Part shown: positions 20,968-23,541 of the stretch, piece by piece
Layout: each line of letters starts with the position of its first letter
How positions within the stretch are numbered: position 1 is the stretch's first letter
Source of the DNA: an uncultured Verrucomicrobiae bacterium
Lineage (GTDB): Bacteria > Verrucomicrobiota > Verrucomicrobiia > Chthoniobacterales > Chthoniobacteraceae
Assembly: GCA_963769025.1 (NCBI GenBank)
Contig: CAVYKI010000011.1
Span: 1-27,667, forward strand
Direction of reading: 5' to 3'
Length of the DNA stretch: 27,667 nucleotides
Notes under the pieces: generated by a model
Database searches by the model: none
The model's input: only the letters and a program-made list of their open reading frames with translations
Told to the model about the DNA's origin: nothing
Position numbers and translations under genes: made by a program

Positions 20968-21159
20968 ATGAAACTGCTCCTCCAAACCACTGCCCTGTCC
21001 CTCTCGCTGATTGCCGCCGGCTTCGCCACCGACGTGCGGAATACCAAGACCACGCGGGATATCCCCACGCCCGGCGAACCCATGGCCAAGCCGGTGAATC
21101 CCGACGCAGGCGGAGGCGTCACCACCAATGGCGTGAGGAACACCAAGACCAACAAGTAG
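20968..21159 (+). CDS. Small (63 aa) putative secreted peptide with duplicated VRNTKT motif
   Basis: MKLLLQTTALSLSLIAAGFA signal peptide. Preceded by an A/C-rich leader (...ccatcaaccccaaaaaacccATG) like that of the divergent OMP gene; C/G-ending codons. Confidence 0.65.
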   Translation: MKLLLQTTALSLSLIAAGFATDVRNTKTTRDIPTPGEPMAKPVNPDAGGGVTTNGVRNTKTNK

Positions 21160-21161
21160 CC

Positions 21162-21282
21162 TTTCGGCGGAATCCGTCGCCTCCGGGCACCTGGCAGGCA
21201 CCTTAAACGCGGGCGTCGCCCGTGGGTGAGGTGCCTTCCTGCATTTCAGGGCCGCATCCGTAGGCGGACGGAACGACGGAAA
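21162..21282 (+). ncRNA. Candidate structured RNA / long imperfect hairpin directly after the small peptide stop
   Basis: Nested inverted repeats: TCCGTCGCCT 21173-21182 / AGGCGGACGGA 21262-21272; AGGCACCT 21196-21203 / AGGTGCCT 21229-21236; GCGGGCG 21209-21215 / CGCCCGT 21217-21223. Family not recognised. Confidence 0.4.
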
Positions 21283-21545
21283 AATCCCCCATTCCCCCTG
21301 TCCGCGGAGCCCTGTTTCCTCCCTCCGTCCCCGGTCTCCTGCGCCTCTTCCCGTCTCCCCGGCTCCTGCCCCGCTGCCCGGGGTCCGTGCGGACGGCACG
21401 GACGTCCTTCCCGGCTCCCGGAGCGAACGCCTTCCTTGCAAAAACCGCCTGTTTCCCCATGCCGGGAAGCCGCCTTTGCCGCTCGGGTTGCGGTTTCGGG
21501 CCGAAAATGGCCGTTTTCGCGGTCCCATTGCCGCCCCCGCCCGCG

Positions 21546-21793
21546 CCGGGGTGCCCATTCCCCGTCCCGGGGTGCCCACTCGCGTTCCCGGGGTGGCCAT
21601 CCGGCGGCGCGGGGTGTCCCATCGCGGAGCCATGGACGCCAGTCCCGCCGCCGGGGTCCTCCATGGGCCGGGCGGAGTGCTCATTCCGAGGGCCGGGGAG
21701 GCGCCCCGGCCCGGCAAATGGGCACCCCCGCAGTCCCATGGGACACCCCGGCCCGCGGAGTGGACACCCCGGTCCGCGCACCCGGCACCCCCG
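21546..21793. repeat. Degenerate 21-bp-period repeat array arranged as a large inverted repeat (core CCGGGGTGCCCAT)
   Basis: Forward units start at 21546, 21567, 21588, 21609, (21630), 21651, 21672 and 21693. Centre hairpin CCGGGG-AGGCG-CCCCGG at 21693-21709. Reverse units (ATGGGCACCCCGG-like) end at 21730, 21751, 21772 and 21793. Confidence 0.85.
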
Positions 21794-21942
21794 GGACGCC
21801 GGGCGGCCGCATTCCCCGCGACACCCGCCCAGGCACGCCCGCGACAACGCGGCAGGAAGTGGCGCAGTCCAGACCTCGCGCCGGGAGTGCTGCCCTTCGG
21901 TTCTGCGTTGCGTTCGGCGCCGGCATCCGTCATTCGGCGTTG

Positions 21943-23541
<1,599 letters not shown>

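Follow-up and report, generated by a model that had tools for sequence, protein, structure and literature searches.

The two-way array of 21-base units upstream of an aldehyde dehydrogenase (ALDH) gene in this uncultured Verrucomicrobiae bacterium is real, as is its inversion, and the array is not a selected long hairpin. It is probably a member of an undescribed class of phase-locked, open-frame leaders, and we judge with good confidence that the copy described here is a decayed remnant of that class, left without its gene. The lack of hairpin selection and the remnant status assigned to this copy are new, as is the observation on these leaders of a stop-free sense frame that ends on the start of the next gene; a search of the open-access literature returned no description of such arrays.

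Architecture of the array

The window, i.e., the whole stretch of 27,667 nucleotides that was analysed, is contig C11 of a genome that is 83% complete. The features in and around the array are as follows.

20968-21159, plus strand: small peptide ORF of 63 codons; flanking, outside the element
21230-21943, plus strand: stop-free frame over the array, ending TGATG on the ALDH start; not the canonical frame of the family
21378-21803, plus strand: whole leader element, as delimited by its homology to the cassette copy of contig C3 (75% identity); 15 x 21 bp lie left of the turn
21378-21422, plus strand: left end, with a decayed TGTGCT..AT box at the same place as in cassette copies; putative promoter
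21420-21545, no strand: left flank with A- and T-tracts ~10.5 bp apart, borderline in the window (36/500 shuffles)
21423-21425, plus strand: leader start-codon position, GCG in the window (start lost), where C3 and most relatives have ATG and the C9 duplicate has GTG
21546-21692, plus strand: left arm, seven 21-bp units with core CCGGGGTG..CA and variable tails
21693-21709, no strand: turn CCGGGG-AGGCG-CCCCGG, a 17-bp hybrid unit of the form GGGG-N5-CCCC
21710-21797, minus strand: right arm, four units with the same core reversed
21798-21880, plus strand: match to the 3' half of a dispersed ~145-bp palindrome (score 58, against a maximum of 41 in 1000 shuffles)
21943-23541, plus strand: ALDH gene (PF00171); flanking, outside the element

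The gap between the small peptide gene and the ALDH gene, put at about 780 bp in the initial annotation, measures 783 bp (21160-21942), and the coordinates proposed for the array all hold: seven left units at 21546-21672, a turn at 21693-21709 and four reverse units ending at 21730-21793. Each unit consists of a 13-nt core and an 8-nt tail, repeated at a period of 21 with an orientation switch. The autocorrelation at lag 21 that had been suggested as a check was run, and both arms beat all 1000 dinucleotide shuffles; identity at this lag is 0.566 on the left (21546-21709) and 0.583 on the right (21693-21797), against 0.33-0.34, with 0/1000 shuffles as high in either case. The array does not reach 21850 as first thought, since 21798-21850 is not lag-21 periodic (689/1000 shuffles) and is half of a different dispersed palindrome. 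Weaker units had been read further to the left (21378-21545); position 21378 is the exact start of the homology to C3, but the lag-21 periodicity of this stretch is marginal (0.361; 29/1000 shuffles). The repeat distance is offset across the turn, since a left half-unit and a right half-unit are fused there into a 17-bp hybrid centre. The GGGG-N5-CCCC geometry of the turn is common to C3, L045 and L032, and was seen there before its use as a search pattern. Among 17 family loci, 124/127 core spacings are multiples of 21, in agreement with the claim that phase is kept, and the phase is thus constrained.

CRISPR arrays have near-identical repeats with unique spacers of ~26-45 nt between them. 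The present array, with its short core and tail and its switch of orientation, is not of this kind, nor is it a plain VNTR, and both exclusions made at the outset are upheld. Rfam gave no match to it up to E 1, and a Pfam scan of 23 window ORFs found no Cas families (the other listed ORFs, mostly shadows, lay outside the scan).

The inverted arms are not a selected hairpin

Complementarity about the axis at 21701 reaches 55/90, where the best axis in 500 shuffles gives at most 49, and the RNA fold of the window array has a z of -2.1, with 2/100 shuffles equally stable. Such values would agree with the earlier suggestion of a cruciform or long double-stranded RNA hairpin as the feature under selection. 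However, the arms pair because the same core stands in opposite orientation, and agreement between units is no better in mirror register than off it, with means of 12.25/21 and 12.71/21 in the window and of 11.2 and 11.0 across 21 family loci. The tails do not pair between the arms, and RNAalifold on 17 copies paired mostly invariant G-runs with C-runs and returned a covariation term of 0.08. The 16/21 match noted earlier between 21651-21671 and the reverse complement of 21731-21751 is correct in value, but two off-register pairs also reach 16/21. Relatives turn either way or several times (convergent, divergent and repeated turns; L049, L065, L072), orientation switches keep phase, and many related cassette arrays, e.g., L030, never invert. 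Selection for a cruciform or double-stranded RNA is thus largely refuted already, and we hold it to be highly improbable. Palindromic units were also considered as a general rule and rejected, as unit dyads beat shuffles in only 3/38 consensus units.

Copies of the element and their gene context

The search for further copies of the core that had been proposed found them in relatives, together with a gene partner, but gave only two independent copies in this genome. Two of the three genome matches are one duplicated locus: the C9 copy is the same locus as the window, because 27,346 of the 27,667 window bases align to C9 (89.6% mean identity). The whole window is duplicated at G000:C9:1252842-1283483, at 82-97% identity in blocks and with many frameshifts in C9. 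Larger contigs likewise cover five more of the small ones, in part or for the most part; strain haplotypes or a noisy long-read assembly are the likely cause. The one independent copy of the window element, on C3, has 75% identity over window positions 21378-21803 and lies between an XRE-type HTH gene (PF13560) and a gene with a W-D repeat start and a 232-aa body, with a collagen-like gene next. The order of the cassette, i.e., XRE-HTH gene, array, W-D leader with helical-bundle/FN3 gene, and collagen-like gene, is intact on C3, where the partner gene, as assembled here, is frameshifted.

A de novo lag scan of this genome gave 31 places, of which 23 were kept; the eight dropped were two that overlap called genes and six that looked like coding heptads by eye. 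A helical-bundle/FN3-type gene lies within 2.5 kb of 12/23 kept arrays, a count that is partly circular since the queries came from genes near arrays, and the other 11 stand apart from any such gene. Searched by pattern, the GTDB genomes yielded 32 stretches, 13 of them unrelated short palindromes and 19 the two-way array; these 19 are all in Verrucomicrobia records, and two of them repeat loci of the family-genome set. The partner gene stands just downstream in 12/19 of these same-family loci, starting ~230-330 nt past the turn; six lack it, and one is at a contig edge with an HTH gene upstream. The six copies without a cassette gene bear out the earlier view of a dispersed element. Viral contigs gave 28 pattern matches, none of which was confirmed. 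Three DNA sequencing runs gave no coverage of the array, which has no bearing on its expression. The scan pattern was also matched by a palindrome, GGGGTC(A/T/G)GACCCC, at 21-bp steps (L052, L053, L057, L059, L063, L070, L077, L080, L083), carried by Betaproteobacteria and other phyla. Two 21-bp arrays of this genome lie downstream of their helical-bundle gene (G000:C10:155117-155490; C3:280340-280601), one with a transposase-like gene between.

The 232-aa body of the partner protein is predicted to form a bundle of four helices and an FN3 domain (pLDDT 86.5). A fold search supports the FN3 assignment at the C terminus (Z 10.9, rmsd 2.2, 86 aligned) and gave generic helical matches only for the N-terminal bundle (best Z 7.6, rmsd 3.1, 95 aligned), with S23-family BT_0352 at Z 6.3. 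Foldseek returned nothing at E 0.001 and the ESM Atlas unnamed clusters only, the protein has no NCBIfam family and its paralogue in this genome no Pfam family, and the predicted fold carries no sign of nucleic-acid binding. The family comprises 2,350 clusters at 50% identity. At L001:4277-4390 and most other cassette loci the partner gene has two in-frame starts, the first opening a W-D-x-G-x-W repeat leader of ~30-38 residues and the second at MKR, both in ATGA contexts.

One period over unrelated cores

An independent test starts from the partner protein, which occurs in 38/151 family genomes. Upstream of its gene the leading lag is 21 or 42 in 27/28 of the loci that were fetched with upstream DNA, over unrelated cores. 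The same holds for new loci from metagenomes, where 56 were found and 31 used (19 lacked a gene start and six upstream DNA): their top lag is a multiple of 21 in 29/31, the loci falling into 21 sequence clusters. A sample of 301 genomes from the class of Hymenobacter (Bacteroidia) contained 20 genomes with the protein. Of the 30 loci fetched, 27 were analysed; 24 of these have an upstream repeat, and its lag is 21, 42, 63 or 84 in 22/24. Several arrays of distant members of a second protein family have a period of 41 or 83.

The HTH gene was found in 41/58 loci with three seed HTHs only, so that misses are possible. A role of the HTH protein as sequence reader is not supported, since the core does not track its recognition helix: the same core occurs with two different recognition helices. 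Cores also change among partner proteins that are 80% identical. The helical-bundle/FN3 protein would be a likelier reader than the HTH protein because its gene is the only constant partner. As the period and the open frame are kept while the letters change, the leader is likely read via DNA shape and passing ribosomes rather than via sequence.

An open frame that ends on the next start

In the 450 nt before the downstream ATG of 35 loci (one locus counted twice, L029 left out), frame +1 contains six stops versus 38, 79, 54, 80 and 81 in the other five frames, while in a control window 600-900 nt upstream the six frames are level (53-75 stops). In 34/35 loci an in-frame ATG lies at the end of frame +1 or no more than 5 nt from it. 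The resulting ATGA overlap is partly automatic where codon 2 begins with A; where it does not, the overlap is TGATG (five loci) or the frame runs on to a second start. The distance from centre to start is 2 mod 3 in 12/13 loci, over eight different distances, and palindromes inserted between array and gene keep the frame. Among the 31 new metagenome loci frame +1 is stop-free in 26, versus 8 and 3 for the other sense frames; of the five exceptions, three rely on frame 0, which is closed by a stop immediately ahead of the ATG. Pooling the cassette loci, which are kin, gives 59/65 (62 with run-on) in which one of the frames stays open over 390 nt and closes between -5 and +1. Among control genes of this genome, each preceded by 400 nt of free DNA, the count is 20/265; these control regions are less G+C-rich than the cassette leaders (0.63 vs 0.69). 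For the 122 controls richest in G+C, a frame other than +1 is the most open.

The second protein family follows the same rule in a different geometry, with frame +2 stop-free in 16/26 loci versus 6 and 6; in 17 loci chosen afterwards for a clear W-D leader, this frame is open for at least 565 nt in 14. Distant members of that family, several with a period of 41 or 83, have no open frame. The Bacteroidia sample gives a weaker signal: a sense frame is stop-free over the array in 18/21 loci and an antisense frame in 13/21, and most of the ORFs end 7-85 nt ahead of the gene. The A+T-rich relative L210 carries an ATG-initiated heptad ORF, its three sense frames having 0, 22 and 21 stops. Judging from the overlap of stop and start, the cassette leader is likely a translationally coupled leader ORF on which expression downstream would depend.

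Selection on frame and peptide

Translations of the open frame are unrelated between cores. Across seven alignable copies the leader has a dN/dS of 0.84, and its variable columns are spread over the codon positions as 41, 42 and 40 of 125. Its GC1-3 values (0.66/0.69/0.67) show no GC3 bias, and its codon log-odds are -0.21 against a comparison value of +0.20. Leader divergence is 0.13-0.15, while the next gene has a dS of 0.45 and a dN/dS of 0.08 (6 of 7 copies); as leader divergence lies below the dS of the gene, the nucleotides are constrained whatever their codon position. There is no selection on the amino-acid sequence of the leader, and by eye its peptides, with this dN/dS and unrelated translations, hold no conserved sensing or arrest motif. 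The initial annotation had named a conserved protein whose heptads explain the period as the case that would overturn it; the reading frame is indeed conserved, but the amino-acid sequence is not.

A peptide function at the level of pattern is kept as a candidate because of periodic hydrophobic signals: period-7 power is highest in the coupled frame at 20/43 loci, and period-3.5 hydropathy at 7/14 loci of the second family, in periodicity tests that numbered eight per family and were made on related loci. The leader would then encode a low-complexity heptad polypeptide whose pattern rather than sequence is selected, 21 nt being seven codons, a reading that we think rather unlikely. Its pattern would be about one hydrophobic cluster per seven residues, rich in Gly and Pro, and coupling would set its ratio to the helical-bundle protein, which we likewise doubt. 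The open coupled frame itself and the ATG-initiated heptad ORFs of A+T-rich relatives such as L210 are consistent with it, and 10.5 nt also equals 3.5 codons. Against this, the dN/dS of 0.84 and the even variation over the three codon positions are not those of a selected peptide, synonymous sites are constrained like the rest, at about one third of the dS of the gene, and the share of hydrophobic residues is 19.2% in the coupled frame compared with 19.5% and 17.2% in the others. The array also inverts mid-frame, A-tracts and T-tracts share a common phase, and arrays of period 41 and 83 exist.

DNA geometry and a proposed mechanism

B-DNA makes one turn per ~10.5 bp, and phased A-tracts bend it. 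The power of A/T dinucleotides in the left flank peaks at 10-10.5 bp, and the 10.5-bp tract signal is clear in 8/11 family copies (at most 9/500 shuffles), borderline in the window (36/500) and C3 (37/500), and lacking in L082. AA and TT together score above either alone in 7/8 flanks, a joint phase that is as expected of bending tracts and not of hydrophobic codons. Inside the arrays the 10.5 harmonic is carried by GG/CC only (12/22, a count made with no null set). The suggestion that the cores sit on one face of the helix draws support from the left flanks of relatives, where A/T-tracts recur every 10-10.5 bp, but the window itself is borderline.

We propose, at about even chances and on the strength of comparative sequence analysis, that the intact leader is a helically phased DNA scaffold inside a translationally coupled leader traversed by ribosomes. 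The 10.5-bp helical repeat would set the geometry, either through bending or through an oligomer on one DNA face, with either unit orientation tolerated, and 21 would be the shortest length that fits both two helical turns and whole codons. Translation of the leader would be needed because 300-500 nt of G+C-rich structured RNA separate the promoter from the gene; ribosomes delivered in this way to the next gene would probably also avert Rho termination. Occupancy of the array, most plausibly by the helical-bundle/FN3 product of the cassette itself, may then tune expression. More tentatively, the class could be a widespread control module in which this protein assembles on its own leader DNA by geometry alone, with one unit for every two helical turns, in either orientation and on any sequence, and in which a product-free frame couples assembly to translation. 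Should that be so, and we regard it as doubtful, the same bases would carry a DNA code of 10.5 bp overlaid on a frame code of 3 nt, and the two together would force the period to 21.

The arrays of period 41 and 83, which cannot keep a frame and have no open one, argue for DNA phase. However, the 10.5-bp signal is borderline or absent in the three copies named above, neither of the candidate readers (HTH or helical-bundle/FN3) tracks the core, and the period-7 and period-3.5 hydrophobic signals fit a peptide pattern. In the other class the open frame usually ends 7-85 nt before the start and antisense is stop-free in 13/21, while in the cassettes the ATGA overlap is partly automatic, the loci are kin and the controls differ in G+C (0.63 vs 0.69). 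Since the array lies within a predicted transcribed, coupled leader, the downstream protein might instead coat its own leader mRNA in a 7- or 21-nt register and block the ribosome, giving feedback repression via coupling; repression of this type is known from iraD (PMC5574718). We consider this distinctly unlikely, given that there is no shared RNA structure (covariation term 0.08; unit palindromes 3/38), that a reversal of orientation would alter a single-strand site, that A/T phasing at 10.5 nt has no obvious meaning in single-stranded RNA, and that in two cases in this genome the array follows its gene instead of preceding it.

Less probable still is that the array is a non-autonomous mobile repeat, MITE or REP-like, whose link to a gene is secondary. 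The absence of such a gene near 6/19 family loci and 11/23 arrays of this genome, the absence of the array from 18 ALDH orthologue loci and the presence of one Y1 transposase in the genome would agree with it. However, the window core has only two independent copies in the genome, and frame and position are tied to one gene family. At the element ends the best inverted match (12/14), a candidate terminal inverted repeat, is the core motif itself, and the C9 duplicate does not share a 7-nt direct match that would be a candidate target-site duplication. The sole Y1 transposase match (G000:C9:555357-555686) is ~2.3 kb from the cassette array at C9:552350.

Comparison with known systems

The leader resembles a coupled ORF laid over a parS-like array, and differs on a defining feature from each of these, as it does from BrickBuilt-type MITEs, REP and CRISPR. 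TIGR-Tas arrays have ~36-nt dual-spacer units beside a Nop-domain protein; here the period is 21 or 42, the partner has no Pfam family and nothing Nop-like is among its listed fold matches, a comparison that leaves room for a TIGR-Tas relation. Iterons and sopC group with the parS of pSM19035 as the nearest array systems. In pSM19035, parS consists of heptad arrays bound by omega2, with contiguous direct and inverse units at the 5' end of the genes of the module (PMC3074150). Cassette arrays likewise have direct and inverse units at helical phase, 5' of the genes of their own module, but their period is 21/42 rather than 7, their sequence is unconserved across loci, and they are chromosomal, multi-copy and inside an open coupled frame. 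The iteron or parS-like array first suggested is thus matched in its helical-phase units but not in a linked gene: the cassette has no ParA/ParM NTPase or Rep gene, and the neighbours in the window are the ALDH and the small peptide gene.

Among leader ORFs, that of E. coli iraD has a stop overlapping the next start and controls expression (PMC5574718). The cassette leader shares the overlap but is an ORF of 130-250 codons built of a 21/42-nt array and without conserved sequence. CruR of Bordetella pertussis (Bp2923, DUF2946) is an upstream ORF that governs the next genes via translation and Rho termination and depends on conserved CXXC and RAPP motifs (10.1101/2022.03.18.484875). The cassette leader is also a protein-sized upstream ORF, but its relatives have no common motif by eye and are periodic at the DNA level. 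BrickBuilt of Porphyromonas gingivalis is a MITE of 23-nt units with IS5-type terminal inverted repeats and 19 copies of one sequence (PMC4596501). It shares with the cassette arrays a genome-dispersed, intergenic tandem array of 20-odd-nt units with a leader; the cassette arrays have many unrelated cores, one period, no clear ends of that kind and a fixed gene partner. A MITE-like family, as initially suggested for the window, is not borne out by three genome matches, two of them one duplicated locus (in a genome 83% complete), nor is a REP-like one by unit dyads in 3/38 and a covariation term of 0.08. The adjacent 145-bp element is REP-like yet separate from the array.

Leaders of the partner family preserve period and frame while their sequence changes, so that they escape searches by motif or RNA family as well as gene callers. 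If it is DNA phase that is read, they would offer a protein a sequence-independent way to recognise its own locus, and would constitute a natural, tunable part for translational coupling. The copy in the window is useful in pointing to the class, and it documents arrays stranded beside ordinary genes.

The window copy as a probable remnant

Neither the HTH gene nor the partner gene is present at the window copy, the family start codon is GCG with the next in-frame ATG at 21459-21461, and a scan for sigma-70 promoters and terminators gave no match. The array is missing from all 18 ALDH orthologues of the genus that were examined (24 were fetched, of which these 18 matched from residue 1). Their two weak lag-21 peaks fall inside upstream genes, and closer ALDH relatives keep the last ~55 nt before the start. 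The ~145-bp palindrome occurs at 24 places in the genome, including just past the last cassette gene at C3, C6 and C9, and its half at 21798-21880 directly adjoins the last array unit, where it likely marks a truncation breakpoint. The simplest history is likely that a C3-type cassette lost the genes between its array and the dispersed palindrome. It is possible that the palindrome half was inserted independently and then decayed, because such palindromes also sit between array and gene. By these sequence features the window copy probably no longer works as in the cassette.

The frame at 21230-21943 runs into the ALDH start with TGATG in C11 and likewise in C9. The 18 orthologues lack this context, which may reflect chance or a new coupling. 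As evidence it is weak because the frame is not the canonical one and all three sense frames are open in the window copy. Divergence between C11 and C9 is 0.09 in the element, where the ALDH gene has a pS of 0.10 and a pN of 0.039; this hints at relaxed constraint, yet the ALDH pN suggests assembly noise, so the comparison carries no weight here.

Several minor features lie nearby. The small peptide ORF (20968-21159) has no Pfam or NCBIfam family; it has a signal-peptide-like start by eye and contains VRNTKT twice. Just past it lies a separate 47-bp imperfect palindrome (21193-21239), found elsewhere only in the C9 duplicate, and 21288-21377 is a pyrimidine-rich tract with 9-mer-like repeats that resembles tracts just past cassette genes at C13 and C3. 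At intervals of about 2 kb, the ~145-bp palindrome is repeated along G000:C10:512848-521540 and C13:27849-36277.
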